Shown: positions 2,963 through 40,130, counted from the first letter of the stretch. The stretch is DNA of 64,000 nucleotides from an uncultured Candidatus Saccharibacteria bacterium (GCA_964390845.1 CAYMIL010000003.1:4425-68424); one strand, 5' to 3'. Program-made: numbers and translations. The notes: generated by a model not told the origin, from the letters alone.

Positions 2963-3589
2963 TCAATAGTGTCGAGGGGGCGGCTGGTCGAACCATGCGA
3001 AGAGGAGCGCGACGGCTCCAACGGTGAAGATGGCGATTTCCGCCACAAACCACGTGCTGATCAGGTACTTCCTGAGCCAGTTCTTGTCGCCGTGGCTCTT
3101 GATGCGCTCATGAAGCACTGCAGGCTCCCACGCAGTAACCCACGCCATCGGGTTTTTGTGGACATACGGCGTGTTGTATGTGTCCACAAAGAACTTGTAT
3201 GCCTTGTTGGAAAATGGCCAGAGCCATTTCACACCCCACCCAACACCAAACGAGTCGTTGACGAAGTGGGTACTGGTGCAGGCACATGCAAGCAGGGCGC
3301 TGATGATCCCTGTCCGCACCGAGCCGTCGACAACTCCGCCAAGTGCCCCCGCAACGAGCGCGAGCGCCGGCAGGAAGACGAGGGGGTAGTGGAAGAGGTC
3401 CCGGTGGTTGTGCGGGTTGTCCTTGTGGGCCGTGATGCCACCCAAGAACAGTGCGTCGAAGTCTGGAAGCACGGAGCACATGAGTGCAAGCGCGAGGAGT
3501 CCCCAGTGCGTGTGAAGGGGCACATCGAATGCGTTGCACATCACCGAGGTCCAGAGCATGGCAAAACCTAGGTCTGAAATGAACAACAT
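2963..3589 (-). CDS. membrane-bound metal-dependent hydrolase, YdjM/DUF457-like
   Basis: LPDFD and HNHRDLFHYP motifs resemble the E. coli YdjM LPDIDHP/HRGFTHS motifs; AGGAGG SD 6 nt before the internal ATG (M73 of the track ORF); the upstream part of the track ORF overlaps tRNA-Gln; GC-rich. Confidence 0.6.
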   Translation of the reverse strand: MLFISDLGFAMLWTSVMCNAFDVPLHTHWGLLALALMCSVLPDFDALFLGGITAHKDNPHNHRDLFHYPLVFLPALALVAGALGGVVDGSVRTGIISALLACACTSTHFVNDSFGVGWGVKWLWPFSNKAYKFFVDTYNTPYVHKNPMAWVTAWEPAVLHERIKSHGDKNWLRKYLISTWFVAEIAIFTVGAVALLFAWFDQPPPRHY

Positions 3590-3715
3590 GACGCGCCTCC
3601 TTTCTCTATGGGTAATGGGCGTCTTGGAGGATAAAATATCTAAAAAAAGATTGGTTGTCAAGGAGGTATTGAATAATTGGACTTTTTGAAGTATCGTAAA
3701 GAACGTTTGAAGTAT

Positions 3716-3789
3716 TGCCGATTCGTCTAATGGTAGGACGACCGCCTCTGGAGCGGTTAATTGGGGTTCGAGTCCCTGATCGGCAGCCA
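3716..3789 (+). tRNA. tRNA-Gln (anticodon CTG), CCA encoded
   Basis: Cloverleaf built by hand: acceptor TGCCGAT/ATCGGCA, D stem GTCT/GGAC, anticodon stem ACCGC/GCGGT with loop CUCUGGA, T stem plus TTCGAGT loop, discriminator G followed by CCA. Confidence 0.8.
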
Positions 3790-3840
3790 AGTCATGCGGG
3801 GTCATCGCGCTCGAGGTGCGTGAGAATGTATAATTGTTAT

Positions 3841-4152
3841 ATGGAACTACTCTGGGATATTTATGAAATACAAAGTGATGCCGACAAATTGCACGGAGTA
3901 ATGCTTCGCGGACGTATCCGTAAATTCACTATCGAGAATGACATTGTCTGTCTTGCAGAAAATGCTTCTGATAAAGAGAATGCGGTTCGCTTTGCTTTGT
4001 TGGCAAACACGGATCCAGCCAAGGTTGCGGGCATCATCCAGCAACTTATTCCTGGCTCGTCTGTATCGAAAGTGTTGGAGTCAGTAAAGAATCCGGTACT
4101 CTCAAAATTGAAAGTAAACGACCTTTCTCGCTACCCTCTTGAGAATTCTTAG
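3841..4152 (+). CDS. hypothetical protein (about 100 aa, possible small alpha/beta domain)
   Basis: The track ORF 3715..4152 overlaps the tRNA at its 5' end; an internal ATG at 3841 is preceded by a TATAAT-like box at 3827-3832; no recognisable motif. Confidence 0.35.
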   Translation: MELLWDIYEIQSDADKLHGVMLRGRIRKFTIENDIVCLAENASDKENAVRFALLANTDPAKVAGIIQQLIPGSSVSKVLESVKNPVLSKLKVNDLSRYPLENS

Positions 4153-4390
4153 GTGCACGAGACGCGTTGTTTCGAACTAGGTCAAACACACCAAATGGAC
4201 TAAGCGGGGCTTGGTCGACCACGGTTCTAACACGAGACGGCCAGCTAATTTGAGATAGGCTATCGCACTCGAGATATGTCGACAGTCTTTCAGAAATCTA
4301 TAAGGTTAAGTTTCTAAAAATAGTGGAATTAGTTACATCAATCACTGTTTAGACTTAGTGGGGTCGCTGAAAGGGGTATATAATGACTGT

Positions 4391-4869: not shown

Positions 4870-5352
4870 TTACCACATCTTCGAAGAGCTGTGCGGACGA
4901 AGCAGGGCATTGAGCATCTTCACTGGCTCGATCCGCAGGTCCGCCCAATGAGCTTCCTTCCAGGAGATTCCGACCTTCACGAACTTCATTCGGGTGAGCC
5001 AAAGCCACCAGATGCGCGGGGTGTGGTACCACGTGGAAACTGCAATCGCCCGAGGGGTCTTGTAGTTGTTGTGGTACCGTGCCAGTGTGAGAAATGCATC
5101 CGTCTCACCGGCAGTGTTTCGTCCGATTGGCTCGAAAACGATGTCCACCTCCGGAACCTTCTGGTCGAGGAAGAATTGCTTCATTCCTTGACCCATGTAG
5201 ATCCCGCGCTTTTTGGCTGAAACCGTGATGAAGATCTTCTGAATCTTGCCCTTTCGGTAGAGCTCCAGAGCTTTTTCGCACCGTCCAGTCGTCTGACCAT
5301 CAATGCGTCCGTTGCACAGCTGTCCGTATCCGTAGACAAGGCCAAAGACCAT
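4870..5352 (-). CDS. YdcF/DUF218 (SanA/ElyC-like) family protein
   Basis: G..DG..T.RC..A..LY..G....I..SG pattern typical of DUF218; preceded by a TTGACA-17-ATAATA promoter and an AAGGAGG SD. Confidence 0.7.
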   Translation of the reverse strand: MVFGLVYGYGQLCNGRIDGQTTGRCEKALELYRKGKIQKIFITVSAKKRGIYMGQGMKQFFLDQKVPEVDIVFEPIGRNTAGETDAFLTLARYHNNYKTPRAIAVSTWYHTPRIWWLWLTRMKFVKVGISWKEAHWADLRIEPVKMLNALLRPHSSSKMW

Positions 5353-6291: not shown

Positions 6292-7122
6292 ATGAACACA
6301 CACATAAGCGAGCTTAAGACCACAGGATTCGTCATGCTGGATTATCCATCTGACCTCAGGTCTGCGGTGGAGAAGACCGTGGAGTTGTGGAAGCGTTTTT
6401 GTGCTTTGCCTGTTGAGGTGAAGAAGGGGCTTCCGTACAGCAACGGTGGCGATGGTGTCGGGTACGAACTCAAAGAAGGCATTGGCAACAAGGCCGATCG
6501 AAAGGAGAATTTCGACATCACGACGGAAGGCGAAGCGTGGTTTCTCAAGAACATCGACACAATCGAAAATCCAGTTGCGATTGAGTTTGTGAAGAGTGCC
6601 ACAGCTCTTGTTGCGGTGATGAAGCCAACAATTCTCGAGTTTGCGTCGCAGGCCGAAGCCGAGTTTGGACTCGAAGGTTTCGCGAAGGAGGTCGAGGAAA
6701 GTGAGGCTGGGTTCTTTACGAGATTTATCCACTACTTCGGTGACAGGGATGTTGGCGAAGAGACTGCGACGGCACACACGGATCAGAGCGGATTCACTCT
6801 GCATTTGTTTGAGAACGCAGAGGGTCTGCAGTGTCTGACGTATGACATGAAGTGGATAGATATGCCGGTGTCGAGCGGTAGGACGGTGATTATTCCGTCT
6901 ATGCAGATGCAACTGCGCTCACGTGGTGAGCTCACTGCGCTGTGCCACAGGGTCATCGCGACCGAACGCACTGCGCACGAGGGACGGTATTCCGCTGTCT
7001 GCTTTGTGCAGTTGAAGCGCACACCACGATACGACAAGGAAAAGGGGGGTCGACTTCAGGAAAAGGAGCCGGGCTTCAACTACGGCATGACACATGAGGA
7101 GTTCGCGACGTTGTTTAAGTAG
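6292..7122 (+). CDS. 2-oxoglutarate/Fe(II)-dependent oxygenase family protein
   Basis: HTD (HxD)...H(RV)...RYS facial-triad/2OG-binding pattern; AAGGAAA SD. Confidence 0.7.
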   Translation: MNTHISELKTTGFVMLDYPSDLRSAVEKTVELWKRFCALPVEVKKGLPYSNGGDGVGYELKEGIGNKADRKENFDITTEGEAWFLKNIDTIENPVAIEFVKSATALVAVMKPTILEFASQAEAEFGLEGFAKEVEESEAGFFTRFIHYFGDRDVGEETATAHTDQSGFTLHLFENAEGLQCLTYDMKWIDMPVSSGRTVIIPSMQMQLRSRGELTALCHRVIATERTAHEGRYSAVCFVQLKRTPRYDKEKGGRLQEKEPGFNYGMTHEEFATLFK

Positions 7123-8267: not shown

Positions 8268-8927
8268 TCACGCGATGACTTCGTGCCACAGTTTGACGAT
8301 CTCGCCGACGACTTGGTCGACGCTCATCATGGTGGTATCGATGATGATTGCTCCCCGGGCGGTGGTGAGTGGGGCACACTCGCGCTTCTTGTCTCGCTCA
8401 TCCCGTTCGATGATGGCGGTGCGGATAGCGAAGAGTGATCCCTGATGTGTGCGCCGGGCGTCGCTCGCGATTCTCATGGCACGAGTGTCTTCGCTTGCGT
8501 CCATGTAGATCTTGAGCTTCGCTTCTGGGAAGACCACGCTCCCCATGTCGCGCCCTTCAGCAACGATGCCTTGGGTGCCGACCTGGCTCTGCAGGATGTG
8601 GTTGACGTCTCGGCGCACCGCGGGAATCTTGCCGATTTCCGAGGCACGCTTGCCCATCTCCTCACTCCAGAGCCTCTGTGGCGGCTCGCTTCCGCTGATG
8701 AGCAGTTGGTCGCCGTTGAAGCTGATGCGCGTCACGTCGAAGCGTGACTGGTCCTTGTTGTGTATGGACGCGCCCTGGTTTTGCAGATACGCCGCGGCGC
8801 GATAGACCACGCCGGAGTGCAGAACACGGAAGCCGAGCTTCTGTGCGACAAGTTTGCTCACGGTGCTCTTGCCAACACCGGCGGGACCATCGATCGTGAT
8901 CACGCGTTCCTTCGGTGTCAAATTCAT
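8268..8927 (-). CDS. cmk: cytidylate kinase
   Basis: ITIDGPAGVGKSTV P-loop and the LHSGVVYR motif; GC-rich compared with its neighbours. Confidence 0.9.
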   Translation of the reverse strand: MNLTPKERVITIDGPAGVGKSTVSKLVAQKLGFRVLHSGVVYRAAAYLQNQGASIHNKDQSRFDVTRISFNGDQLLISGSEPPQRLWSEEMGKRASEIGKIPAVRRDVNHILQSQVGTQGIVAEGRDMGSVVFPEAKLKIYMDASEDTRAMRIASDARRTHQGSLFAIRTAIIERDERDKKRECAPLTTARGAIIIDTTMMSVDQVVGEIVKLWHEVIA

Positions 8928-15066: not shown

Positions 15067-16245
15067 CTACTTTGTGTCTTTCAGAGAAAAACTCCACAGC
15101 GCTCCCGTGAGCGTGATGATACCGAGTATTGAAAACGTGTAGCTGTATGGGGCATGTGAGATTGTTGTGCAGTATGCCGCAAGACTCACCACTGCTGGGG
15201 TAATAATGTATGACAGCGGTCGTGTTGCTCGAAAGAGGCTAATGAAGCCAGCGTTTTTGTCGGTAACGTGTTTGAAAAAATACGACTCTGATGACACTTC
15301 AACAAAGCTTGCTCCAACGCGTGTCAAAAAGAGAAACAGCGCCCACAATACAAGGTCTGAACTACGGAGGGCGGGTATGCAGAATGTTGTTACGGACATG
15401 ATACAGAAACCGGTGATGAGTATTTCTTTCTCACCGATTTTTTTGTCCGCGAGCGCGCCTAGTGGAAGCTCAAAAAGCATAAAAGGGAGTAGCATAATGG
15501 TGAAGATGACACCGATATGAGACCATGAAAATCCTATGTGGTTGTGCAAATACAGTGGCATGTAGATGACCATCCATGCGTAAAAGAATTGGAGAACGCA
15601 CTGTCCAGCGAGCGCTCCGCGGATGTCTCGGTTGCTCCACGCATCTCGAAGTGTGCCACGGATGTCGATGGTGCGCACTCGGCTTCCCGTTGCACCTCGT
15701 AGATAGTGTCGTACAACAAAAAAGAGAGGGAAGAGAAAGAGGAGAGAAACGAGGTATACATTGCCGTAGTGTCCGCTTGCGAGAAGTATGCCGGTAAGAA
15801 GTGGCGATACGACGAGTGTGATATTTCCAAGTGTGAGATAAAGTCCGCGCGCTACGCCAGTGTGCTTTTCGTTTTTAAGTGATCCTTCGAGAAATACATC
15901 GAGGCCGAATGTCGCGAGAGGGATGATCGCTTGGTGTGTGATAAATGCCAAGGCGACTGTCATGGGCGTTGAGCCAACCGCAAGTCCCACAAGCGCCGAC
16001 GCCTCAAGCACCAGTGCCCACAGGGTATACTTGTGGTTTCCAATACGCGACAAAATACGTGGAGTACAAAAAAGCAGGATAGTAGTAATCACGGATCCTA
16101 CCATATACAGAAGTCCAAGTGTATCTGCTGAGAAAAAAGTGCCGAGGTACGAGGAGTTGACGTAAATGATCAGGAAAAAATGGAATGAAAGCAGAAGGTT
16201 TGAAAGGTAGATTGCGATAAGGCGATGTGATGGTGTGTGTGACAT
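15067..16245 (-). CDS. MFS transporter
   Basis: 12-TM-like hydrophobic profile; internal ATG (MSHTPSH) with an AGGAG SD and an upstream TATACT -10 box; the longer track ORF has no signal upstream of this ATG. Confidence 0.7.
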   Translation of the reverse strand: MSHTPSHRLIAIYLSNLLLSFHFFLIIYVNSSYLGTFFSADTLGLLYMVGSVITTILLFCTPRILSRIGNHKYTLWALVLEASALVGLAVGSTPMTVALAFITHQAIIPLATFGLDVFLEGSLKNEKHTGVARGLYLTLGNITLVVSPLLTGILLASGHYGNVYLVSLLFLFPLFFVVRHYLRGATGSRVRTIDIRGTLRDAWSNRDIRGALAGQCVLQFFYAWMVIYMPLYLHNHIGFSWSHIGVIFTIMLLPFMLFELPLGALADKKIGEKEILITGFCIMSVTTFCIPALRSSDLVLWALFLFLTRVGASFVEVSSESYFFKHVTDKNAGFISLFRATRPLSYIITPAVVSLAAYCTTISHAPYSYTFSILGIITLTGALWSFSLKDTK

Positions 16246-16380
16246 GTACGCTCCTAAGTATACCTCGAGGAAGGAGCTCTTGACAGTGGAAAAATAAAGG
16301 CATATGGTAATGAGGAATCGCACCTTGGAATATTGCTCGACATGTTGTCGGCTCTTCGGTGCTCTGTCAAGGAGGTGTTT

Positions 16381-17055
16381 ATGCGTCGCATGTGCATGCT
16401 CCCGTTTCTGCTGATGATCGCTTGTGCGGTGACCTTGGTTGCCGCGGGCGACAAGAACACCGGCGACACGTCGTCGCCGAGCAAGTCGGAACACCGCGAC
16501 ATCTTCCGCGGGGGTCGTGTGACTCCCGACGAAATGGCAACCATCGCGCAGACCTTCTGCGCCGATGGCTACGCGGTGACGCAGTCCCGCGTGGTGGTTC
16601 CGAACGACGGTTCGGCGCTGTTCGTGGTTGGTGTCCTGACTACCAAGTCGGGGCGCCAGTACAACTTCGGCGACATCTTGCCTCCGGGCGAGGTGATCGT
16701 GTCCGGCATGGCGTGGGTCATGCCGCGTGGTCCTGATGCGTTCATGGACTACGACGGGTACAACGGCGTTCTCGAAGTCGCCGCTGGCGAGATGGTGGTC
16801 GTCGGGGACGTCCTCGACACCAGCGCCGACGGAGGCACTCCGGCGTCCACGGGACCGCAGACCTGCACGGTGACGTGTGGTACGTCAGCGTACTACGCCT
16901 GCTGCAGTTACCGGCCCGATGGTTACCCCACCTGCCACTGCAAGAAGCAGACGGAGAACGCCTCCTGCGCTTCCGGTGGCCCTGGGGCGAGCCAGTGCTC
17001 GCTGTCGCAGTCGCCTCCCGGCTCGAGTCAGCCGGGCAACAAGCCGCAGAACTAG
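16381..17055 (+). CDS. secreted cysteine-rich hypothetical protein (GC-rich island)
   Basis: AGGAGG SD 6 nt before the ATG; signal peptide MRRMCMLPFLLMIACAVTLVAAG; 10 Cys clustered in the last 50 aa; strongly GC-enriched third codon positions. Confidence 0.6.
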   Translation: MRRMCMLPFLLMIACAVTLVAAGDKNTGDTSSPSKSEHRDIFRGGRVTPDEMATIAQTFCADGYAVTQSRVVVPNDGSALFVVGVLTTKSGRQYNFGDILPPGEVIVSGMAWVMPRGPDAFMDYDGYNGVLEVAAGEMVVVGDVLDTSADGGTPASTGPQTCTVTCGTSAYYACCSYRPDGYPTCHCKKQTENASCASGGPGASQCSLSQSPPGSSQPGNKPQN

Positions 17056-17074
17056 CCCCTGCGGCACAACAAAA

Positions 17075-17112
17075 CCGGCCAGCACCCTTGAGGTGCTGGC
17101 CGGCTCTTTTTT
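17075..17112 (+). terminator. rho-independent terminator
   Basis: CCGGCCAGCACC-cttga-GGTGCTGGCCGG followed by CTCTTTTTTATT. Confidence 0.8.
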
Positions 17113-17144
17113 ATTTACTTTTTTCTACTTACACGCCCCACGAC

Positions 17145-19028
17145 TTAGACTCCAAGTACCACAGGGATAACAATTGGCTTCTTTGCGGTGCGCTGGAAGA
17201 GGAAGCGAGTAACTGAATCAGCAATATTTTCCTTTACGTAATCGAAGTTGATTGGATTCATGCCGACAGTCGTGTCTTCCACGGTCTTTTTGATAAGTGT
17301 GCGTGCCTCCTGAAGCAAATCCTGAGATTCGCGCAAATAAATGAATCCTCGAGAAATGATGTCGGGGGACTTTCGGAGCTTTCCTGTCTTGAGGTTGACG
17401 CTTGCGATGATGACAAACATGCCGTCTTCCGCGAGCATTTTTCTGTCACGCATCACAACTTCCTGCACGTCTCCGACAGAGAATCCATCTACCATCACCA
17501 TACTGTTTGGGGCAGACTCTTTGAGCTTTACGATTTTTTCACCCTTGTCCTGTATTTCAATAATAGAGCCGTTGTCTGGTACAACAATATGGTCTTCTGG
17601 CATGCCAAGTGATTCTACGAGCTGAGCATGAAGACGTAGGCGATAGTGGTTGCCGTGAATAGGCATAAAGAATTTCGGATTGATCTTCTTAAACATCCAT
17701 TCAAGCTCGCCGCGGTTGCCGTGGCCTGTGGAGTGGATGTACACATCGGATGTTCGATAGTGAATGATTTTGGCACCCTGTCGCGCGATATTGTCTTTGA
17801 GTTTTTCTACCTTCTTTTCATTGCCAGGAACGATAGATGAAGAGAGCAACACGGTATCACGTTTCGTAAGTTGGAAGTTTTTGTGGTTTTTTGTCGCCAT
17901 GCGCATAAGACCAGAAAACTCTTCTCCCTGTGCACCCGTTGCGAGAATAACAATCTTGTCTGGTGGGTACTTTTCCACGTCTTCGGTAGGAATCATCGTT
18001 TCCTTTTTAGGGTTAAACATTCCTGCCGCCTTTGCGATTTCAAGATTTGTTTTCATGCTTCGGCCTTCTACGGCGACACGTTTTCCATAGTGTTCTGACA
18101 CTTCGATAATTTTGATGAGGCGCTCGAGGGTAGAAGCAAAGGTGCCGATAATAAGACGCCCTTTAATATTTTTAATGATATCCTCGAGATTTTTGTGAAC
18201 GATTTTTTCTGGTGTTGAAAAACCAGGGTTTTCAACGTTTGTTGAGTCGTTCATAAAGAGAAGTACCTTTTCTTTTTCAAATCGTTTGTACTCTTTCTCT
18301 TCTGCTTCTGTTGGCATGCCGTCATTGTGGTCGAGTTTTGGGTCGCCGGCATTGACGATGCATCCGTATGGAGTTTCGATAATTACACCCATTGAGTCTG
18401 GAATCGTGTGGGACACTGAAAAGAATCGGACAGGGAGATTGCCGAGGCGGATGCGCTCTTCTTTTTCCACGGTAACGATTTCAAACGGTGGAAACTGAGG
18501 AAACTCTTCCTGTCGCTTTTTGATCATGAGTGTCGTGAGCTGACGGGAGTAGAGTGGCGGGTTGCCGATACGTGGCATGATAAATGGAATACCGCCGATA
18601 TGATCGAGGTGGCCGTGAGTGATGATGACCGCGCGGATTTTATCTTTTCGATCTTCGAGGTACTTTGTGTTTGGGAGAATGTAGTCTACGCCCGGAGTAC
18701 CTTCTTCTTTAAATTGAAAGCCCATATCGATGACAATGATGTCATTGCCAAACTCTACGGCTGTCATGTTTCGGCCGATTTCTTCAACGCCTCCAAGTGG
18801 GATGATGCGCACATTGTCACCAAGTGGTGGAATGGTGTCTTCGTGTTTTCTTTGCTGAGGACGTTGTCCGCCCGCGTCTCGTCGCATAGCGCTTGGGCTT
18901 CCGCGCATACCAGCGACGGGTCGTCGTCCCATATTACCTCCGCGAGATCGTCGGCGAGGTCGTTCTCCGCGTGATCGCGGTGCGGACGAAGAAAATGCTC
19001 GTCGCGGTGTTTCTTGTGATTGTTCCAT
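17145..19028 (-). CDS. rnj: ribonuclease J with an Arg-rich N-terminal extension
   Basis: Metallo-beta-lactamase HGHLDHIGG motif, beta-CASP and C-terminal domain; about 70-aa R/G/P-rich N-terminus. Confidence 0.9.
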   Translation of the reverse strand: MEQSQETPRRAFSSSAPRSRGERPRRRSRGGNMGRRPVAGMRGSPSAMRRDAGGQRPQQRKHEDTIPPLGDNVRIIPLGGVEEIGRNMTAVEFGNDIIVIDMGFQFKEEGTPGVDYILPNTKYLEDRKDKIRAVIITHGHLDHIGGIPFIMPRIGNPPLYSRQLTTLMIKKRQEEFPQFPPFEIVTVEKEERIRLGNLPVRFFSVSHTIPDSMGVIIETPYGCIVNAGDPKLDHNDGMPTEAEEKEYKRFEKEKVLLFMNDSTNVENPGFSTPEKIVHKNLEDIIKNIKGRLIIGTFASTLERLIKIIEVSEHYGKRVAVEGRSMKTNLEIAKAAGMFNPKKETMIPTEDVEKYPPDKIVILATGAQGEEFSGLMRMATKNHKNFQLTKRDTVLLSSSIVPGNEKKVEKLKDNIARQGAKIIHYRTSDVYIHSTGHGNRGELEWMFKKINPKFFMPIHGNHYRLRLHAQLVESLGMPEDHIVVPDNGSIIEIQDKGEKIVKLKESAPNSMVMVDGFSVGDVQEVVMRDRKMLAEDGMFVIIASVNLKTGKLRKSPDIISRGFIYLRESQDLLQEARTLIKKTVEDTTVGMNPINFDYVKENIADSVTRFLFQRTAKKPIVIPVVLGV

Positions 19029-19058
19029 TGTCAGTTGTTCTTTATGTCTTACTAATGA

Positions 19059-21032: not shown

Positions 21033-21141
21033 TCCAGAGATTATACAAGCTTGGTTGAAAAAAGCAACTATCTCGGAACCTACCACTTCGGTGAACTTTT
21101 TGGTACTATAGTGCCACATTATAAGTAATATGTTCACTGCT

Positions 21142-21462
21142 ATGGCAAAAAAGACCAAGGCAATAACGAAGATCATGCCGCTCGGCGACCGTGTCCTCGT
21201 GCGGCCGTTTACTGCAGATGATATGGCGCCAAAGAAGTCCTTCGGCATCATTATCCCGGACACTGTTCAGAAAGAAAAACCGGAGCAGGGTGAGGTGGTT
21301 GCTGTAGGCGAAGGGCGTCGTGAAGACGGCAAGCTGATCCCCGTTCGCGTAAAGGTGGGCGATACAATACTTTTTTCCCGATATGGTTTTGAAGATGTTC
21401 GTGTTGATGATAAGGAGTTTTATATTCTCAAAGAAGAAAATATTTTAGCGATTATTAAATAA
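21142..21462 (+). CDS. groES: co-chaperonin GroES
   Basis: IMPLGDRVLV...GEVVAVG GroES signature. Confidence 0.9.
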   Translation: MAKKTKAITKIMPLGDRVLVRPFTADDMAPKKSFGIIIPDTVQKEKPEQGEVVAVGEGRREDGKLIPVRVKVGDTILFSRYGFEDVRVDDKEFYILKEENILAIIK

Positions 21463-23112
<1,650 letters not shown>

Positions 23113-23799: not shown

Positions 23800-24375
23800 A
23801 TGTCTTTTCTAGACCGAGTGGCGCCGTCCATGCGACGCATGATTGCATGTGGCCGTGTCCCAAGAAGGCTCGTCTATGAGTACGCGCGACGCCGTGGTGT
23901 CGACGCAGATCTGATGCTTCGCTACGATAGGTGGTTGCGCTTCTACAGCGCGCTTCACCTGCCCGTGTCACTGCTGAAGCCCTTTGCGTGCTTGGATACC
24001 GTGCGCACGTGGAGAGCGTGCATCGATGACCTGCTCGTGATGTACTGCTTGCTTGAGATTCCTCTCGGCAAGCCCGTCAACTTCACGCAGATTGACAATG
24101 CTGTCGAGGAGAGTCTCGTCAACAACCGTGTCGCTGTCCTTGTACACGGTCGTCTCGCTCGTGAGAAGGAGCTCGCGTCGAAACATGAGGATGTCGTCAA
24201 GGTTCTCGATAATGAATTCAGTGAGCGCTACGCACTCTATCAGTCGTTCAGTCTCGTTGGTGATATGGGTTGCTACGCTCACAGGGCGCGAATCGTGTTT
24301 TGGCAGAACCCCGATGACCCTGGGGGCAGGCTCACGGATTTGCTCAAGGAAGAAATCAACCGCAAGGTCAACTAA
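23800..24375 (+). CDS. hypothetical protein (GC-rich island)
   Basis: GAAGGAGG SD plus spacer before the ATG at 23800; no recognisable domain; followed by a hairpin plus T-run. Confidence 0.5.
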   Translation: MSFLDRVAPSMRRMIACGRVPRRLVYEYARRRGVDADLMLRYDRWLRFYSALHLPVSLLKPFACLDTVRTWRACIDDLLVMYCLLEIPLGKPVNFTQIDNAVEESLVNNRVAVLVHGRLAREKELASKHEDVVKVLDNEFSERYALYQSFSLVGDMGCYAHRARIVFWQNPDDPGGRLTDLLKEEINRKVN

Positions 24376-24376: not shown

Positions 24377-24414
24377 CCCCATTGTCGCAGAAGCGGCAAT
24401 GGGGTTCTCTTTTG
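24377..24414 (+). terminator. probable rho-independent terminator
   Basis: CCCCATTG...CAATGGGG stem followed by TTCTCTTTTG. Confidence 0.5.
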
Positions 24415-25408: not shown

Positions 25409-25972
25409 TCACTGCTGAGCACGAATGATGGCCGCGTCAACCGTCTGCTGGAGGGTCCGCACTCGAGGCCAGCACTCCGGGCTCTCTCGCACGGCCTCTC
25501 GGAAGTTGTGCGTGATCTCGCGCTGGCCCGGAAAGTCCTCCTCCATGCCGATGACGACACGTCTGTGGTGTTCGAACATCAGGTGTCCACGCCACTCGCC
25601 GAGTTCGCCTCGGGTGTCCTGCGCGTATGGGCCTTCTGCTGGGTCGCGTGGGACGGTCTTGGACTCGCAGGGGAGCCAGAACATGAGGCACCCCTTGCGA
25701 GACGCAAACTCCATCCACCGACGCTCCCACTTGATGTGGTGCACCGGCTCAGGGTTTGAGTTTGGGGTGATCTCGTGTGCACGGATCGGATGGTCACTCG
25801 GATAGGAAACGGGGATCACGAGCGTGCACGAAAGCGAGTACCGCGAGAAGATCTTGTGACACTCGCTCTGCCAGTCGTTGCCTCCGCGCACAGGCCCAGC
25901 CAGGAAAAAGACATGACCAGGCGGGTTGATCGATTCGGGCATCGTCTTCGGAAGAACAATTTTCGCCGACAT
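25409..25972 (-). CDS. nucleoside 2-deoxyribosyltransferase-like (DNPH1/Rcl-type fold) protein, tentative
   Basis: VFFLAGPVRG...W N-terminal motif and a downstream VVIGMEED region resemble the N-deoxyribosyltransferase-like superfamily; GC-rich. Confidence 0.4.
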   Translation of the reverse strand: MSAKIVLPKTMPESINPPGHVFFLAGPVRGGNDWQSECHKIFSRYSLSCTLVIPVSYPSDHPIRAHEITPNSNPEPVHHIKWERRWMEFASRKGCLMFWLPCESKTVPRDPAEGPYAQDTRGELGEWRGHLMFEHHRRVVIGMEEDFPGQREITHNFREAVRESPECWPRVRTLQQTVDAAIIRAQQ

Positions 25973-26107
25973 GGTGCTCCCTTCGAAAGTGGTGAACGGG
26001 TGGGGATTGCGTGTCAGAAACCAGTGTCTACCGTAGCATACGTGCAGTAGCGCGTCTATAGTATTGTGTTGTCTGTGAGTTGATTTCGCGCTATTGTTGT
26101 CTGCATT

Positions 26108-26197
26108 GGAAAGATGCCAGAGCGGTCGAATGGGCCACCCTGGAAAGGTGGTATATCCGAAAGGGTATCGAGGGTTCGAATCCCTCTCTTTCCGCCA
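26108..26197 (+). tRNA. tRNA-Ser (anticodon GGA), long variable arm, CCA encoded
   Basis: Acceptor GGAAAGA/TCTTTCC, anticodon loop CUGGAAA, 18-nt variable arm, GGTTCGAATCC T-arm, G-CCA end. Confidence 0.85.
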
Positions 26198-26288
26198 ATT
26201 TCGTATCTATTGAACAAAACCCGCCTTTGCGGTACTGTGTTTTTGGAAGTTTGTACGAGCTAAACCCAATACGAGGAGGTGATGTAAC

Positions 26289-26843
26289 ATGTCGACGCCC
26301 AAGAAGCTTCGCATCCGTCTGCTTGGCGACCCTGTTCTGCGCAGTGTCGCACAGCGTGTCAAAAGTCCACGTCATCCAACAATCCGCAAGATTGTCCGCG
26401 ATCTCGTGCACACCTTTGAGGTGTACGGCGGCGGCGGTCTTTCCGCGCCACAAGTCGGGCACTCTCTGCGCATCATTGTGGTCGGCATTCGGTCATCGCC
26501 GCGCTATCCAGACATCATGCCGACTAGGCGTCACGTCATGATCAACCCTGTATTCCTGACGAAGTCTTACTCTGTGGAGGATGGACCAGAGGGGTGCGTG
26601 AGCTTGCCGGGGCTCATTGCGTTGAAGGTGCCACGTCACGCCAGTGTGCGCATTCAGTGGACGACGCCTGGGGGTCGTGTCCTGGAAGGCTGTTTTACGG
26701 GCACGTTTGCCCGTATCATCCAGCATGAGATGGACCACCTTGACGGACTCATGTTCACGGACCGCCTCAAGAACAACAAGTCGCTCGTCTCGTGGAAGGG
26801 GTATGAGAAGCTTTGCGCCACCGACAACGTGTCGCAGAAGTGA
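26289..26843 (+). CDS. def: peptide deformylase
   Basis: GLSAPQVG, EGCVSLPG and QHEMDHLDG motifs; GAGGAGG SD; GC-rich. Confidence 0.9.
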   Translation: MSTPKKLRIRLLGDPVLRSVAQRVKSPRHPTIRKIVRDLVHTFEVYGGGGLSAPQVGHSLRIIVVGIRSSPRYPDIMPTRRHVMINPVFLTKSYSVEDGPEGCVSLPGLIALKVPRHASVRIQWTTPGGRVLEGCFTGTFARIIQHEMDHLDGLMFTDRLKNNKSLVSWKGYEKLCATDNVSQK

Positions 26844-26861
26844 TCTTCTTCGCTCAGCGCC

Positions 26862-26904
26862 AACCCGCCTCGCGTCTCTGACGTTGAGGCGGGTTTCTTT
26901 TATT
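26862..26904 (+). terminator. rho-independent terminator
   Basis: AACCCGCCTC-loop-GAGGCGGGTT followed by TCTTTTATT. Confidence 0.75.
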
Positions 26905-26996
26905 GACGCTTATATGCCTCGGGTATACGATGAACTATGAGAATTCTTGGCGCGTTGCCGAGGATATGTTCCTTACCAGATCAGAAGGAGGAGGGT

Positions 26997-27959
26997 ATGG
27001 CAAAAAAGAACCCACTGAGTAGCCCGGTGTTCATGGGCCGCCCATTCCGCATGGCTGTGAAGGGAGGAATGCTTCGGCCTTTCTGCAAGAGCGTCGAGGT
27101 GTTGCCGAAGATTCAGAAGGAGGGAAGGTTTTACACCCTCCATCTCTGCATCAACAAGGGACGCAAGACGCTCTCGTACACCCCAGTCTTGTACCAGTGC
27201 GACCTCGTCGCGCTGTGGCGGAGTGCGCAGGTCATCGAGCGGTTTCGCTCCATTTCGTCTGAGGACATGATGTACGCGTACTGTGCTGTCTACTGGGCAT
27301 CGTACAACGAAGCCTCGGGCATCACGCACGCCAACGACGCACAGTGTGTCACCGAAGTCCGCAAGGTCATCGGCGACGATGAGTTTGTGCGGATCATGCA
27401 AACCCCACCGCCAGAGGACATCATCAAGGCAATCGTGATGGGTGCCGGCGTCAAGAGGAGCCTTTCTCTGACGCCGCTCACCTACGAGTGCAAGCGTGGC
27501 ACGATTTTGTGGAGGAATACGTTTGCTCAGGTGTGCGTCCTGCACCCTGAGACATGGGAAGCTCGACGAGAGAGTCTCAAGGAAATCCTCTACAAGTACG
27601 AACCCGACCTGCACAACTGTGCGGTGGAGGTGCTCGAATCGTTCTCGCGCGACATCAACTGCGTGCCGATGCTTGAGGTGGTCGCTGGAGACATCATCTT
27701 CGACGCGCCCTACGCATCGATCACTCCGCACGTTCTCTGCGCCGCGTCGGCGATTGTGCTTGGGCTTCGTCTTCACACCCAGCGCAAGATCGACAAGGGC
27801 CAGAATGTGAGTGAGCTCGGGTTTCAGGAGGCCGTGCACGCACGCCTCTATGAACGTGCGGTGCTCTGGCTCAAAAGCCGCACTGAACGAAAGGATGAGG
27901 AACGAGTGTTCAAGGAACTCGACTTCGTCTTGGAGCAGACGGTCGCGTGCTCCATCTAG
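26997..27959 (+). CDS. hypothetical protein, 321 aa (GC-rich island)
   Basis: GAAGGAGGAGGG SD before the ATG at 26997; Cys-containing; no recognisable domain. Confidence 0.5.
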   Translation: MAKKNPLSSPVFMGRPFRMAVKGGMLRPFCKSVEVLPKIQKEGRFYTLHLCINKGRKTLSYTPVLYQCDLVALWRSAQVIERFRSISSEDMMYAYCAVYWASYNEASGITHANDAQCVTEVRKVIGDDEFVRIMQTPPPEDIIKAIVMGAGVKRSLSLTPLTYECKRGTILWRNTFAQVCVLHPETWEARRESLKEILYKYEPDLHNCAVEVLESFSRDINCVPMLEVVAGDIIFDAPYASITPHVLCAASAIVLGLRLHTQRKIDKGQNVSELGFQEAVHARLYERAVLWLKSRTERKDEERVFKELDFVLEQTVACSI

Positions 27960-27972
27960 GTTCTCCTTCGAG

Positions 27973-28016
27973 GGGCCGCCACCAGATCGTTTGGTGGCGG
28001 CCCTTTTCTTTTTTCT
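27973..28016 (+). terminator. rho-independent terminator
   Basis: GGGCCGCCACC-agatcgttt-GGTGGCGGCCC followed by a TTTTCTTTTTTC run. Confidence 0.8.
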
Positions 28017-28030: not shown

Positions 28031-28741
28031 ATGAAAAACATACTCCTTAGTCTCATCGTATTTGTGTTAGCGGGTCTTGGAACATTTTTTTACTTTACAC
28101 ACCCTGTTGAACAGCCAACACAAGATATTTCTGAAACAAGTGCAGACGCACAGCTTGAAGTTGTCTACACAGACACGCAAGCACTGTACCGCATAGCTTC
28201 AGAGCGTTCTGTCGCAACATTTCGTATTGGAGAAACATTGCGTGGAGAACCGTTTACTGCAGTGGGTACGACAAGTCAGGTGTCGGGTGATGTTGTGATA
28301 CAGAAAGGTGTTGTGGATGCAACAACATCACCTCCTGTATTGTTCACGATAGGCGAGGTTCGTCTTGATGCGCGAACATTTACAACGGATAGTCAGCAAC
28401 GCGATACTGCACTCAAGCGTTTTATTCTACAAACAGAAACGCCGGGTAATGAGTTTATGGTGTTTGTGCCGAGCGATGTTGTTGATGTTCCTGAGCAGAT
28501 TGTTTTGGGCGAACCCTTTACCGCGACTCTCAAAGGTAACATGACGATTGCCGGCATAACACATCCTGTTGAGTTCGCTCTTACTGCAACACAAACACCA
28601 GACACATTGTCATTGCATGTTGAGGGTGTGCTCAAACGCTCCGATTTCAATCTCACGATTCCAAACATTCCGTTTGTTGCAGATGTTGATGATGTTATTG
28701 AGGTGAGTGTAGATGCTATTGCATATATTGTGCACCCATAA
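28031..28741 (+). CDS. YceI-like domain protein with N-terminal TM anchor
   Basis: YceI family pattern (…VDATTSPPVLFTIGEV…NMTIAGITHPVEF…LKRSDF) after a signal/TM helix. Confidence 0.75.
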   Translation: MKNILLSLIVFVLAGLGTFFYFTHPVEQPTQDISETSADAQLEVVYTDTQALYRIASERSVATFRIGETLRGEPFTAVGTTSQVSGDVVIQKGVVDATTSPPVLFTIGEVRLDARTFTTDSQQRDTALKRFILQTETPGNEFMVFVPSDVVDVPEQIVLGEPFTATLKGNMTIAGITHPVEFALTATQTPDTLSLHVEGVLKRSDFNLTIPNIPFVADVDDVIEVSVDAIAYIVHP

Positions 28742-35753: not shown

Positions 35754-35800
35754 AACCCACCACTCCGACAGGTAGCAGGCTTCCTGTTGTGTGGTGGGTT
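35754..35800. terminator. hairpin between convergent gap and a minus-strand gene (T-run on the minus strand)
   Basis: CCCACCAC...GTGGTGGG with an inner stem; on the minus strand it is followed by TTTTCTGT. Confidence 0.5.
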
Positions 35801-36293
35801 AGTCGCCGACTTGGATTCGGCGATGCGCTCCAGAGAGGAGGGGTTGGATCTCGTCAAACTCCTTCTGGCTGAGGACGACCACCTCCTTGGTGCCGTTCTC
35901 CTTCTTGACGAGGCGGACGATCTTGCGCTTGTCGATCTCGCCGTTTGCCTTGGTGGTGTACCAGTGGATGTCGGAAGGGCTGTTCACCCAGTGCTTGCCG
36001 CCGACGATGATCGGCACAAAGTTGCGCTGGATCTTGACCTTCGTCTTGATGAGCGCGTGGGCGACCTCGATGGCTTCGGCGTGGAACTCCTTCCATGAAC
36101 CACCCTTGAGGCGCTCGCAGAGCTTCTCGAAACCACCAGAGAGCCCAAGCTCGCAGGACTCGTAGATGAAATCGACGTCGTCGATCTCCCGGTCGCCACG
36201 GACGATGTCCGCGATGGTGTTCTCAAGACCGATGCCGATCTTGGGCTGGGCCTCATTGAGGCCTGGGACAGGAATGGGCGCGTTGTCAGACAT
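35799..36293 (-). CDS. hypothetical protein, 164 aa (GC-rich island)
   Basis: GC-rich ORF with a GGAG-containing SD-like sequence (GGAGATTCGACCCATG); no recognisable domain. Confidence 0.5.
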   Translation of the reverse strand: MSDNAPIPVPGLNEAQPKIGIGLENTIADIVRGDREIDDVDFIYESCELGLSGGFEKLCERLKGGSWKEFHAEAIEVAHALIKTKVKIQRNFVPIIVGGKHWVNSPSDIHWYTTKANGEIDKRKIVRLVKKENGTKEVVVLSQKEFDEIQPLLSGAHRRIQVGD

Positions 36294-36907: not shown

Positions 36908-37609
36908 ATGACTGAGATTATTCCCGCAATTATGCCGACAAGCTTTTCCGACCTTGAGGATAAGCTCGGCCTTGTTGCTTCACACGTATCTCTTGTGCAG
37001 ATAGATGTTATGGATGGCCGACTTACTCCTGCAAAGACGTGGCCATATGCGACCGGCGAGCTCGATAAAAATTTTGTGAAAATAATACAGGAAGAAGAGG
37101 GGTTTCCTTTTTGGAATGATGTCGATTTTGAAGCAGATCTCATGGTGCGCGAGCCGGAAAAGATTTGGCGTGATTGGGTGAGTGCCGGTGCAAAGCGACT
37201 CATTTTCCATCTTGAGTCGCTTGCTCAGCCAGAAGAATTTCTCGACATGATGAGAAAAAATGCTGTCGCAAAGGATTCTCCACTCTACACAGAGATTGGG
37301 TTGGCGATACGGATTAGCACTGACAACGATGTGTTGTATCCACTTATTCCACATATCGATTTTGTGCAGTGTATGGGTATTATGGAAATTGGTGTGCAGG
37401 GGTCTGCATTTGATGAACGTGTACTTGAGAAGGTTGCGGATTTGCGTGCGAAGTTTCCTGAACTTATAATAAGTGTTGATGGTGGTGTAAATATGGAGAC
37501 CGTGCCACGACTCATCGAAGCGGGAGTTAATCGTCTCGCGATTGGTTCTGCAATATTTGCCGCAGAACATCCAGAAGACGCGCTGAAAGCTTTTCAACAC
37601 AATGAGTGA
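36908..37609 (+). CDS. rpe: ribulose-phosphate 3-epimerase
   Basis: DVMDG motif and TIM-barrel epimerase pattern. Confidence 0.85.
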   Translation: MTEIIPAIMPTSFSDLEDKLGLVASHVSLVQIDVMDGRLTPAKTWPYATGELDKNFVKIIQEEEGFPFWNDVDFEADLMVREPEKIWRDWVSAGAKRLIFHLESLAQPEEFLDMMRKNAVAKDSPLYTEIGLAIRISTDNDVLYPLIPHIDFVQCMGIMEIGVQGSAFDERVLEKVADLRAKFPELIISVDGGVNMETVPRLIEAGVNRLAIGSAIFAAEHPEDALKAFQHNE

Positions 37610-38471
37610 GCTCACTGATACAAAAATACAAGAACTACAATTACAAGCAAACGATATTCGTCAGTCGATTATCAAGATGCTTGTTGAAGCGGGTTCTGGT
37701 CATACTGCCGGCCCCCTTGGTATGGCTGACATTTTTACCGCGCTCTATTTTCATATACTCAAACACGATCCCAAAAAACCAGATTGGCCAGAGCGTGACC
37801 GCGTGGTCCTTTCCAATGGTCACATTTGTCCGGTGCTCTATGCAACAATGGCGCACGCGGGATATTTTCCTGTAAAAGAGCTTTCGACACTGCGAAAGTT
37901 TGGTTCACGTTTGCAAGGACACCCGCATCGAGAATATTTGCCCATGCTTGAGACAAGCTCGGGTCCGCTTGGTTCGGGTCTTTCGCAGGCTGTTGGTATG
38001 GCACTCGCTGATAGGATAGACCGCGGTGTTTCAAGCGACCGCTATGTGTACTGCCTTATGAGCGATGGCGAACTCAACGAAGGTCAGCCGTGGGAAGCGG
38101 CGATGCTTGCCGGTAAAAACAGGTTGCGCAATCTTATTGGCATTATCGACAGAAACAATATTCAGATAGATGGTTTTACCGAAGATGTAATGCCCCTTGA
38201 GCCACTTGCAGATAAATGGCGGTCTTGGAATTGGCACGTTATTGAAATCGATGGACACAATTTTGAGGAAATTGTTGATGCTGTACAGCAAGCAAAAGCG
38301 GTGTTTGAAAAGCCGACGGTTATTATCGCGCACACAATTCCAGGTAAAGGTGTTCCAGAATTTGAGCGAAAGTTTGAATGGCATGGCAAACCACCAAACA
38401 AAGATGAAGCCGACATGGCACTTGCCGCGTTACGCACGCTTGGAGGGAAAATAAAGAGTGAGCATGAATAA
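37602..38471 (+). CDS. transketolase, N-terminal subunit (split form)
   Basis: GHTAGPLGMADI thiamine-diphosphate motif; overlaps rpe by 8 nt. Confidence 0.9.
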   Translation: MSELTDTKIQELQLQANDIRQSIIKMLVEAGSGHTAGPLGMADIFTALYFHILKHDPKKPDWPERDRVVLSNGHICPVLYATMAHAGYFPVKELSTLRKFGSRLQGHPHREYLPMLETSSGPLGSGLSQAVGMALADRIDRGVSSDRYVYCLMSDGELNEGQPWEAAMLAGKNRLRNLIGIIDRNNIQIDGFTEDVMPLEPLADKWRSWNWHVIEIDGHNFEEIVDAVQQAKAVFEKPTVIIAHTIPGKGVPEFERKFEWHGKPPNKDEADMALAALRTLGGKIKSEHE

Positions 38472-39465
38472 TATGACGCACGATACGCTCAACAAAAAAA
38501 TATTTGATACAGATGTCGAGCAGGTGCCTATCCGAAAAGGGTTTGGCGAGGGCTTGCTTATTGCGGGCGCACAGCACGAGGGCGTTGTCGGCTTATGTGC
38601 CGACCTTGTCGAGTCTACGCAGATGCATCTCTTTGCGCAGAAATTTCCAAAGCGTTTTATAGAAATAGGAGTCGCAGAGCAAAACCTCGCATCGGTTGCA
38701 TCTGGTATGGCGGCGATGGGGAAGATTCCATTTATCACATCCTACGCAATGTTTTCTCCGGGCCGAAACTGGGAGCAGATTCGTACAACGATTGCATACA
38801 ATGATCAGCCGGTAAAAATTGCTGGATCGCACGCCGGTATCTCCGTCGGTCCCGACGGTGGTACGCATCAGGCAGTAGAAGACATCGCGCTTATGCGTGT
38901 TATACCACACATGGTAGTCCTTTCTCCGTGCGATGCAATTGAAGCAAAAAAGGCGACAGTCGCCGCGGCGAAAATAAACAAACCTGTATACATACGTCTT
39001 GCTCGAGAGAAAACACCAGTCATTACTACAGAAGATACGCCATTTGAAATTGGTAAGGCACAAACCTTTTTTGCTCCACAGAAAGGAAACGCATCTGTCG
39101 GCATTATCGCAACGGGCGCCCTTGTGCACAAAGCACTTGTTGTTGCGCGCGCGTTTGAGAAGAAAGGGGTTGCTATAAAGGTGATTAATCTTGCGACAAT
39201 AAAACCACTTGATGAAGAGGCCATACGAGCTCTTGCTGAAGAAACGGGTGCAATTGTGACCGTGGAAGAACACCAGATTGCTGGTGGAATGGGAAGTGCT
39301 GTTGCTGAGTGTCTTGCACAGCATCAGCCGGTGCCAATCGAGTTTGTGGGTGTTCGAGATATGTTTGGCCAGTCTGGTACTCCGGCGGAGCTTATTGAGC
39401 ATTACGGCATGGGAGAGTCTGCGATATCAGAGGCTGTTGAGCGTGTGCTGTCTCGTAAACACTAG
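38458..39465 (+). CDS. transketolase, C-terminal subunit (split form)
   Basis: Pyrimidine-binding and C-terminal transketolase domains; overlaps the upstream subunit by 14 nt. Confidence 0.9.
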   Translation: MSMNNMTHDTLNKKIFDTDVEQVPIRKGFGEGLLIAGAQHEGVVGLCADLVESTQMHLFAQKFPKRFIEIGVAEQNLASVASGMAAMGKIPFITSYAMFSPGRNWEQIRTTIAYNDQPVKIAGSHAGISVGPDGGTHQAVEDIALMRVIPHMVVLSPCDAIEAKKATVAAAKINKPVYIRLAREKTPVITTEDTPFEIGKAQTFFAPQKGNASVGIIATGALVHKALVVARAFEKKGVAIKVINLATIKPLDEEAIRALAEETGAIVTVEEHQIAGGMGSAVAECLAQHQPVPIEFVGVRDMFGQSGTPAELIEHYGMGESAISEAVERVLSRKH

Positions 39466-39628
39466 TTTGCATACGTGAGGAAAAAAGACTTGAAGAGTTG
39501 TATTGGTGTGTTAGCATAAAAGTTGGGTCAGTTCTGTTACGTTGCTGACTGGAGGCACCCTATTGTGTCTCGCCACTTTCACAATTTGCGTGGGTGATAG
39601 GACGCCACGCACCATTCCCAGTGTTGGG

Positions 39629-40066
39629 ATGGAGAGTATGCTTATGACTACGGCAGTACTCGTGGAGGAAGCAGAGATCGAGCGGTCGCGGTGCGCGATT
39701 CGTGAGAAGCTCTGCAAGCACGGTCTCGGCCCTGCGGAGGCTGAGGAGGTCATGTCCGAGGCGACCCCGCGTCTTGCGGAGGAGGTCTTCGCCTGGACGG
39801 AGCGTGCCACCAAGCTGATGAAGCGGAGTGTGCGCGACAAGTTCAAGCGGGTTCGGCCTGCACGCATCATGCGCATCACGTTGCGCTGGCTGCGTCTGCT
39901 CAGCACGTCCATCGCCAACGTGGACGCGCTCTACTCCAAGTGCTTGCGGCGTCTCAACCAGCTCAAGCTGGACATCAGCGCTCGCAACGTGACCGAGATG
40001 AGGCGCTTCGCGCGTGGCATCATCGTGGCGCTCAAGATCAAGGAGCGCAAGATGGTTCCCGCGTAG
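39629..40066 (+). CDS. hypothetical basic alpha-helical protein (GC-rich island); start uncertain (39629 or 39647)
   Basis: GC-rich ORF; GGAGAG SD-like sequence 7 nt before the third ATG; R/K-rich; followed by a strong hairpin terminator. Confidence 0.4.
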   Translation: MESMLMTTAVLVEEAEIERSRCAIREKLCKHGLGPAEAEEVMSEATPRLAEEVFAWTERATKLMKRSVRDKFKRVRPARIMRITLRWLRLLSTSIANVDALYSKCLRRLNQLKLDISARNVTEMRRFARGIIVALKIKERKMVPA

Positions 40067-40086
40067 GGGGCATCGTCACAGTCAGG

Positions 40087-40130
40087 AAAAAGGGGGTTCG
40101 ACTCGCGTCGAACCCCCTTCCTTTTTTATT
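40087..40130. terminator. bidirectional rho-independent terminator
   Basis: GGGGGTTCGAC-tcgc-GTCGAACCCCC flanked by an A-run and TTCCTTTTTTATT. Confidence 0.85.

Follow-up and report, generated by a model that had tools for sequence, protein, structure and literature searches.

A 64-kb stretch of metagenomic DNA filed under an uncultured Candidatus Saccharibacteria bacterium (GCA_964390845.1, CAYMIL010000003.1:4425-68424; in the following "the window", with positions counted from its first nucleotide) carries, between positions 2963 and 40130, eleven single-gene units whose codons are much richer in G + C than those of the surrounding chromosomal genes. These units, here called islands, are bordered by expression signals of their own, and five of the six that could be compared are missing from the corresponding sites in the closest relatives. 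As judged from sequence comparison, the islands are probably genes that were acquired individually (we put the probability at roughly 0.6), which would be a known kind of event.

Composition and anatomy of the islands

Per-gene composition was calculated for a curated list of 10 island genes and 52 other genes, the latter consisting of 51 backbone genes and a gene for a 2OG-Fe(II) oxygenase. The G + C content at third codon positions (GC3) of the 10 island genes, which are located between 2.9 and 40.1 kb, was 0.67–0.84 (mean 0.755, standard deviation 0.057), whereas the backbone genes had values of 0.34–0.53 (mean of all 52 non-island genes 0.439, standard deviation 0.049). The separation of island genes from the others was complete (Mann–Whitney p = 6.8e-7), and with a binomial standard deviation of approximately 0.035 for a gene of 200 codons, the islands lie 6–11 standard deviations above the backbone. 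The islands thus have the deviant composition and codon usage by which horizontally acquired genes are recognized, and the pattern of GC-rich single genes in an AT-leaning backbone, which an initial annotation of the sequence had described, was borne out. The oxygenase gene is intermediate and was counted as the eleventh unit. Island coding sequence amounts to 6.9 kb, corresponding to 19% of the region 2963–40130, and no island was found beyond 40.1 kb in the window.

First codon positions were equal in G + C content (GC1; 0.587 in the islands and 0.574 in the backbone, p = 0.26), and second positions were slightly richer in the islands (GC2; 0.429 versus 0.386). The amino-acid composition of the islands resembled that of the backbone, except for raised proportions of Cys (2.4% versus 0.8%), Trp, and Arg. 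With GC1 and amino-acid composition nearly the same in both classes, the difference comes down almost entirely to the choice among synonymous codons, as illustrated by the codon shares of AAG (0.90 in islands versus 0.40 in the backbone), ATC (0.80 versus 0.36), and ACA (0.07 versus 0.46). The elevated GC3 runs evenly along each island gene and ends abruptly at the gene borders, with no gradient into the flanking genes.

Every island has an AGGAGG-like Shine–Dalgarno site and a GC-rich hairpin at its 3' end. In a consensus scan of the region from 2.5 to 41.5 kb, the five strongest terminator-like hairpins were all located at island 3' ends, namely those of the DUF218/YdcF gene (10 base pairs; 4840–4816) and of the gene at 16381–17055 (17075–17103), and the three listed in Table 1. 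The earlier description of islands bracketed by Shine–Dalgarno sites and hairpins thus holds. Several of the top-ranking sigma-70-like sites immediately precede an island, among them TTGACA-17-TATTTT at 3661–3633 for the YdjM gene, TTGACA-16-CATAAT (11 of 12 matches) at 5400–5373 for the DUF218/YdcF gene, and a good site in front of 16381–17055; the total number of such sites was not above the shuffle expectation, so that the case for island promoters is made by position only.

Family searches agreed with the names given to YdjM, cmk, and def in the initial annotation. The cmk product scored 163 bits against TIGR00017 (cutoff 135.55) and matched positions 1–210 of the 211 positions of the PF02224 profile, which makes it a predicted (d)CMP kinase. 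The def product, a predicted peptide deformylase, scored 139.5 bits against NF001159 (cutoff 125), carries the motifs GGLSAPQ, EGCVS, and HEMDH in its translation, and remained just under the TIGR00079 equivalog cutoff (102.7 versus 103.95). Most entries of the initial island list were confirmed, but the supposed single open reading frame (ORF) at 25409–27959 consists of three genes and a tRNA-Ser(GGA), and the DUF218/YdcF gene and the intermediate oxygenase gene had been overlooked. Six orphan genes (16381–17055, 23800–24375, 25409–25972, 26937–27959, 35799–36293, and 39629–40066) had no match in Pfam, NCBIfam, PHROGs, or PADLOC; they are regarded as real coding sequences because of their strong three-base periodicity and sensible translations. 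Single-sequence AlphaFold models of 25409–25972 and 35799–36293 had predicted local distance difference test (pLDDT) values of 35–40 and were unusable.

Table 1. Island genes, adjoining tRNA genes, and the insertion junction discussed in the text.
Feature	Position	Strand	Remarks
YdjM-family (formerly DUF457) membrane hydrolase	2963–3589	-	GC 0.58, GC3 0.75; PF04307, E = 1.3e-10
tRNA-Gln(CTG), backbone anchor beside the YdjM island	3716–3789	+	same tRNA adjoins pyrG in L019
DUF218/YdcF-family island gene	4870–5352	-	GC3 0.69; PF02698, E = 8e-11
2OG-Fe(II) oxygenase, intermediate island	6292–7122	+	GC3 0.64; PF03171
Predicted bacterial-type (d)CMP kinase, cmk	8268–8927	-	GC 0.60, GC3 0.76; PF02224, E = 1.7e-56
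RNase J/MFS junction	16246–17144		L018 11807–12700; L019 11708–13560; 72 loci in all
Predicted secreted protein, Cys-rich C-terminus (from translation)	16381–17055	+	GC 0.65, GC3 0.83; signal-peptide-like N-terminus
Orphan, 191 aa, between LemA and M48 peptidase	23800–24375	+	GC3 0.67; hairpin 24377–24404
Orphan, 187 aa, between M48 and tRNA-Ser	25409–25972	-	GC3 0.74
tRNA-Ser(GGA), ancestral backbone gene, inserts on both sides	26108–26197	+	
Predicted peptide deformylase, def	26289–26843	+	GC3 0.70; PF01327, E = 6e-39
340-aa protein, rare family found in Patescibacteria	26937–27959	+	GC3 0.74; hairpin 27970–28006
Orphan, 164 aa, between GAPDH and RpiB	35799–36293	-	GC3 0.83; Shine–Dalgarno site
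Orphan, 145 aa, between transketolase C-terminal half and PfkB	39629–40066	+	GC3 0.84; hairpin 40090–40119

Synteny and related loci

A scan of GTDB representative genomes for RNase J yielded 80 related loci, of which the four closest (L018, L019, L021, and L022) have RNase J proteins 80–82% identical to that of the window and G + C contents of 0.39–0.40. Their gene order is Gmad2 – methyltransferase – MFS – RNase J – SBP – SecG – (GroES/EL) – LemA – M48 – tRNA-Ser – adenine glycosylase – SelR – DUF192 – NrdAB. The genes of LemA and M48 are 12–136 bp apart in all four relatives, and the window holds 23800–24375 at this place; L021 was informative for this junction only, which is empty there. 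In L018, L019, and L022, M48 and tRNA-Ser(GGA) are separated by 15–43 bp, where the window holds 25409–25972, and tRNA-Ser and the adenine glycosylase gene are adjacent, where the window holds def, 26937–27959, and an AT-leaning YceI gene. Finally, pyrG and tRNA-Gln are 386 bp apart in L019, and a 516-aa orphan plus the YdjM gene lie between them in the window. The proteins of 23800–24375, 25409–25972, def, 26937–27959, and YdjM had no tblastn match in any of the 80 loci. Because the junctions are empty and these matches are missing, parsimony favors gain in the lineage of the window. The syntenic comparison covers six units, with the other five situated outside the compared regions; of the six, the five genes named for the tblastn search are absent from their syntenic sites, whereas 16381–17055 is present in L018. 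The gene-sized acquisition suggested in the initial annotation is thus supported by synteny, since backbone genes that flank islands in the window are neighbors in the closest relatives. Around the cmk junction, the relatives found by MetRS (L005–L009) showed little synteny with the window.

The YceI gene (28031–28741) is likewise absent from the syntenic site in the relatives yet AT-leaning (GC3 0.35), and thus not all lineage-specific inserts are GC-rich. In the window (21130–23112) and in L019, the GroES/GroEL genes separate SecG from LemA; they are missing at this place in L018, L021, and L022, whose LemA and SecG genes adjoin each other, so that the location of the chaperonin operon varies among close relatives.

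The window has a G + C content of 0.478, a positive GC skew throughout, and most of its genes on the plus strand. Its backbone genes are those usual in Patescibacteria (among them a split transketolase, RNase J, Gmad2 and RRM-domain proteins, NrdAB, and an FBA/PfkB/GAPDH core); the transketolase is encoded as an N-terminal and a C-terminal half by two genes (37602–39465), which follow those of RpiB and Rpe. Relatives were up to 77% identical in MetRS and up to 82% in RNase J, and all named ones are Patescibacteria assigned to the Parcubacteria, Paceibacterota, Zambryskibacteria, or Taylorbacteria. Records labeled "uncultured Candidatus Saccharibacteria" among the RNase J relatives grouped with the Parcubacteria/Paceibacterota by identity and gene order. 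To judge from gene content and these affiliations, the window is part of the chromosome of a Paceibacteria/Parcubacteria-type member of the Patescibacteria. Its backbone is richer in G + C than the four closest relatives (0.478 versus 0.39–0.40), and at four-fold degenerate sites the G + C content (GC4) is approximately 0.40 versus 0.19–0.38 in their orthologs. The lineage of the window has undergone a genome-wide shift toward G + C that could be, but need not be, connected with the large number of its GC-rich inserts.

Inserts of the same kind occur across the clade. The RNase J/MFS junction does not exceed 180 bp in 45 of the 72 relatives compared and contains inserts of 0.4–1.9 kb with unrelated small ORFs in another 23, nine of these inserts being at least 0.05 richer and two poorer in G + C than their own genome; this junction is a recurrent insertion hot spot. 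In L019 it harbors a gene for a secreted, Cys-rich, Pro-tailed protein with an architecture like that of 16381–17055 and no detectable similarity to it. A scan of 1,208 ORFs from the 80 loci and part of the window for a G + C content more than 0.08 above the locus median identified 48 outliers, 42 of which lacked a homolog in any other locus; among ORFs conserved in at least five loci a single one crossed the threshold, and barely so (+0.09). At least one GC-rich outlier ORF was present in 29 of the 80 loci. Single genes that are GC-rich and restricted to one lineage thus occur repeatedly in the clade, and the window carries them at unusual density. That the outliers in the relatives might be due to rRNA or other RNA genes was rejected, as only tRNAs were found.

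Three further observations concern GC-rich genes in individual relatives. The contig of L015 (GCA_034680565.1, JAXOUH010028519.1, 1–20978), which encodes a distant homolog of 26937–27959, has a two-class composition, with approximately 16 mostly uncharacterized genes of GC3 0.61–0.76 beside G6PD, FolD, and others at 0.48–0.49, and with one GC-rich aminotransferase gene interleaved. At 18039–19904, L018 contains a gene pair of raised GC3 (0.53 for a sigma-70-family factor and 0.63 for a ParB-like protein, in a genome of 0.30) that has the look of a mobile-element fragment; the second protein shares 30% identity with the chromosomal ParB of the window (61193–62179). L018 (3726–4736) and L019 (908–1894) also carry, beside DUF192, a gene for a fatty-acid-desaturase-like membrane protein with histidine-box motifs that is absent from the window, with a GC3 of 0.55 and 0.44, respectively, versus about 0.30.

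Origin of the islands and alternative explanations

The best of 3,449 matches to the cmk product were 41–44% identical, and the named ones belong to Syntrophales, Synergistales, Chromatiaceae, and similar groups, with no Patescibacteria among them. Three relatives (L096, L094, and L076) encode an archaeal-type (d)CMP kinase (TIGR02173), which in L096 is a short protein (15267–15800) scoring 103.4 bits against a cutoff of 102.1. With TIGR00017 in the window and TIGR02173 in the relatives, the window cmk thus differs in kind from the usual CMP kinase of the clade. The best match of def, 42% identical, is located on a contig of 42.6% G + C where its composition is unremarkable, and the fourth-best cluster showed 38% identity; the family context of def appears to be patescibacterial. 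Of the xenologous replacement proposed for cmk and def in the initial annotation, the part concerning cmk is compatible with the bacterial versus archaeal enzyme types, whereas a distant foreign source of def is not indicated. For 26937–27959, 43 distant relatives (25–35% identity) were found among 1.84 billion representatives, one of them named as Parcubacteria, and no close relatives in GTDB representatives, IMG/VR, or JGI metagenomes. One homolog resides in a 38%-GC genome beside murein-synthesis and FtsZ genes and has a native low GC3 (0.27); those in L013 and L015 are surrounded by GC-richer genes. Best-hit taxonomy, suggested earlier as a check, gave a divided picture, with cmk pointing away from the Patescibacteria at low identity and both def and 26937–27959 apparently pointing toward them. 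The protein of 25409–25972 had weak matches (28–32% identity, E down to 1e-10) in two huge uncultured phages (LR756500.1 and LR756502.1, both records unannotated), and a search of phage and plasmid collections with a concatenate of eight island proteins returned only weak matches, to 25409–25972 in the huge phages and to the YdcF family in plasmids.

The higher-GC donor lineage envisaged in the initial annotation was not encountered, the highest identities being the 44% and 42% of cmk and def and six genes lacking any family match, and such a donor would be conjectural. A gene pool of higher G + C content, within the Patescibacteria or near them, seems a likelier source than, for example, an actinobacterial host; GC-rich clade members do exist (L059, for instance, with a GC3 of 0.72), and the codon preferences given below on the whole point the same way. 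Single-gene horizontal gene transfer in Patescibacteria, chiefly within the phylum, has been documented (PMC12455944), and natural competence is reported for Saccharibacteria (PMC10633639).

Individual acquisition would then have proceeded as follows. A syntenic backbone with a GC3 of approximately 0.44 would have taken up about eleven separate single-gene units, each an autonomous expression cassette with its own Shine–Dalgarno site, a strong GC-rich terminator, and often a good sigma-70-like promoter. The cassettes would have landed between genes, for instance on either side of tRNA-Ser and close to tRNA-Gln, and their GC-rich codons would reflect an origin outside the mutational regime of the host chromosome, most likely in a higher-GC gene pool made up largely of other Patescibacteria or their mobile elements. 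Entry may have occurred by DNA uptake and illegitimate or flank-homology recombination that left no integrase or repeat signature, although transformation is conjectural for this organism. If functional, the bacterial-type cmk would add to or replace the archaeal-type CMP kinase of the clade, and def would contribute a divergent, Patescibacteria-like enzyme.

Several results weigh against this reading. Gain instead of multiple losses is a parsimony argument over four to five relatives, and the genome portion analyzed comprises 64 kb. No integrase or transposase was present among the window gene calls and no target duplications were seen, nor were there tRNA-derived or other flanking repeats around tRNA-Ser or tRNA-Gln. 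The amino-acid composition of the islands matches the backbone and not typical organisms of 60% G + C. For none of the islands was a donor or close homolog found in 5.8 billion protein clusters, GTDB representatives, IMG/VR, and JGI metagenomes; public gene calls miss or mis-call four island genes in the window, however, and may do so elsewhere. A further objection comes from 16381–17055, which has an equally GC-rich syntenic ortholog despite saturated synonymous sites and in this respect is unlike a simple recent acquisition. This ortholog belongs to L018, apparently the closest relative recovered (M48 87% and NrdB 95% identical), occupies the same RNase J/MFS junction in the same orientation, encodes a protein 47–48% identical, and has a G + C content of 0.61 and a GC3 of 0.77 in a genome with a GC3 of approximately 0.30; a hidden Markov model of the family had its sole match among all fetched loci in L018. 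At four-fold degenerate sites of conserved residues (60 sites for the island pair, which is a single gene pair), identity was 0.24–0.40 for backbone orthologs versus 0.24–0.29 expected, indicating near saturation, and 0.30 versus 0.32 expected for the island pair, which is fully saturated. Both island copies nevertheless have a GC4 of 0.77, compared with approximately 0.40 in the window backbone and 0.19–0.38 in that of L018. A Jukes–Cantor-type estimate from the residual identity of the backbone indicates that at most about 35% of an ancestral G + C excess would be kept per lineage, so that even an ancestor with a GC4 of 1.0 would leave approximately 0.51 in L018. With saturated sites and a GC4 of 0.77 in either genome, the pair cannot result from one ancient acquisition that then ameliorated neutrally. 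Independent acquisition or reacquisition from a GC-rich pool at the hot spot, repeated cassette replacement, or a force that holds the gene GC-rich remain as explanations.

The last of these can be extended to all islands: small accessory genes in Paceibacteria might be actively held at a GC4 of approximately 0.75–0.8 in genomes with a GC4 of 0.2–0.4, and might possibly be old residents whose state outlasts synonymous saturation. Such a state might be upheld by selection, acting on GC-ending codons or on properties of the mRNA, or else by GC-biased gene conversion confined to particular loci at recombination or insertion hot spots. We consider this alternative tenable but doubtful. Apart from the saturated 16381–17055/L018 pair, which exceeds the value estimated for L018, it would account for the resemblance of the islands to their host in amino-acid composition and in codon "dialect", the preference for C over G at third positions correlating per codon family with that of the window backbone at r = 0.94 (eight families, hence soft evidence). 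On the same eight families the correlation with the islands was 0.75–0.99 for most clade members, 0.41 for the Pseudomonas plasmid pWW0, 0.72 for Sinorhizobium pSymA, and only 0.25 for L059, a GC-rich clade member (GC3 0.72). It would also fit that def and 26937–27959 belong to patescibacterial families with low-GC members. Its central evidence, however, is one gene pair with 60 four-fold sites, for which two independent insertions or cassette swapping at the demonstrated hot spot would give the same pattern, and the five other testable islands, being absent from the closest relatives, are insertions whatever keeps their G + C content high. Moreover, we know of no mechanism of such strength acting on single genes in bacteria. 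That the islands are moron-like or other cargo of GC-rich patescibacterial phages or plasmids, left behind as single genes, appears improbable. Their promoter–ORF–terminator anatomy does resemble phage morons as generally known, 25409–25972 has its 28–32% identical counterparts in the huge phages, and the GC-rich sigma-factor and ParB-like gene pair of L018 would suit such a source; but the window contains no phage or plasmid backbone genes, integrase, or att repeats, the orphans had no PHROG match, 26937–27959 had no relatives in IMG/VR, and the plasmid matches were weak and confined to the YdcF family.

The two remaining explanations carry very little weight. Strong Shine–Dalgarno and promoter-like sites could mean that the islands are native genes expressed at a high level and that their GC-rich codons are the optimal ones; this was rejected, as the genes of ribosomal proteins S2, L25, and L31, EF-Ts, GroEL, and GAPDH have a GC3 of 0.38–0.44 and the island genes are absent from close relatives, which leaves translational selection a very slim chance. 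Slimmer still is that of an assembly or binning artefact with pieces of a GC-richer organism stitched into the contig, although the sequence is of metagenomic origin and mis-assembly had been named at the outset as a result that would overturn the pattern. The window matches a metagenomic scaffold (SPIRE WANG18-1_SAMN08389278 scaffold_6), and the same proteins recur on four to seven contigs from NCBI, ENA, and Logan, the longest of 302 kb. Genes of def, 25409–25972, or AspRS have the same neighbors on six or seven contigs from these three sources, including a Logan contig produced by a different assembler that spans tRNA-Ser, def, 26937–27959, and four backbone genes. In addition, the eleven inserts end exactly at intergenic borders, complete with Shine–Dalgarno site and terminator, one of them has its GC-rich ortholog at the same place in the unrelated assembly L018, and like inserts exist in the loci of the 29 relatives mentioned above. 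Mis-assembly is thus unlikely.

Implications and relation to known systems

In the public gene calls cmk was missed in favor of two short plus-strand ORFs, a minus-strand gene (26973–27839) was predicted instead of 26937–27959, a 91-aa plus-strand ORF was called opposite the 164-aa gene at 35799–36293, and nothing was called at 39.5–40.1 kb, where 39629–40066 is located. These four proteins are therefore missing from the protein collections, in which no exact copy of the cmk product or of the 164-aa protein was present. The atypical GC3 probably misleads a gene finder that is apparently tuned to the backbone composition. As four of the 10 strongly GC-rich genes, cmk among them, were missed or mis-called, metabolic reconstructions and protein databases under-report such genes.

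Single-gene horizontal gain is thought to patch the reduced metabolism of Patescibacteria, and here it would be unusually dense and would include housekeeping functions in nucleotide salvage and translation (cmk and def). The bias also runs contrary to what is usually seen, the accessory genes being richer in G + C than the core. What sets the window apart is this direction together with the density of inserts, their cassette-like anatomy, and one ortholog pair that has not ameliorated. The pair is a concrete test case for gene-by-gene maintenance of G + C content in bacteria; if such maintenance exists, GC-rich islands would represent a maintained state and not the fading footprint of an import.

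Among known systems, integrative elements at tRNA genes do not fit the islands, as neither an integrase nor a tRNA-end repeat was found. Integron cassettes are similar in being single-ORF units, many without known function. The islands differ from them in being dispersed and present in both orientations with neither integrase nor array; no intI-like gene occurs among the window gene calls, and the 3' hairpins are T-tailed, ordinary terminator-like structures without mutual similarity by eye, no dedicated attC model having been run. Phage morons are single genes with their own promoter and terminator between conserved genes, and the islands, too, are self-contained promoter–ORF–terminator units of deviant G + C content between conserved syntenic genes. 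The promoter-like and terminator-like sites are here flanked, however, by chromosomal housekeeping genes (GroEL, RNase J, NrdAB, and pentose-phosphate genes) and not by a prophage.

In the picture of Lawrence and Ochman, horizontally acquired genes reportedly have an atypical GC3 that ameliorates over time. The islands agree with it in that GC3 is the most deviant codon position, in their gene-level borders, and in their absence from relatives. They depart from it in being GC-richer than their host, an AT-richer composition being usual for acquired and orphan genes, and in the 16381–17055/L018 pair, which is unameliorated after synonymous saturation. The genomic islets described for Patescibacteria (PMC12455944) are likewise single genes or short islands, of a composition atypical for the Paceibacteria-class genomes that carry them, and they are exchanged mostly within the phylum, often with donors that were not recovered. 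The window differs from them in that its 11 units make up 19% of 37 kb and are all GC-shifted without a detectable donor, and in that one unit is held in common with L018, the closest relative found, without amelioration.

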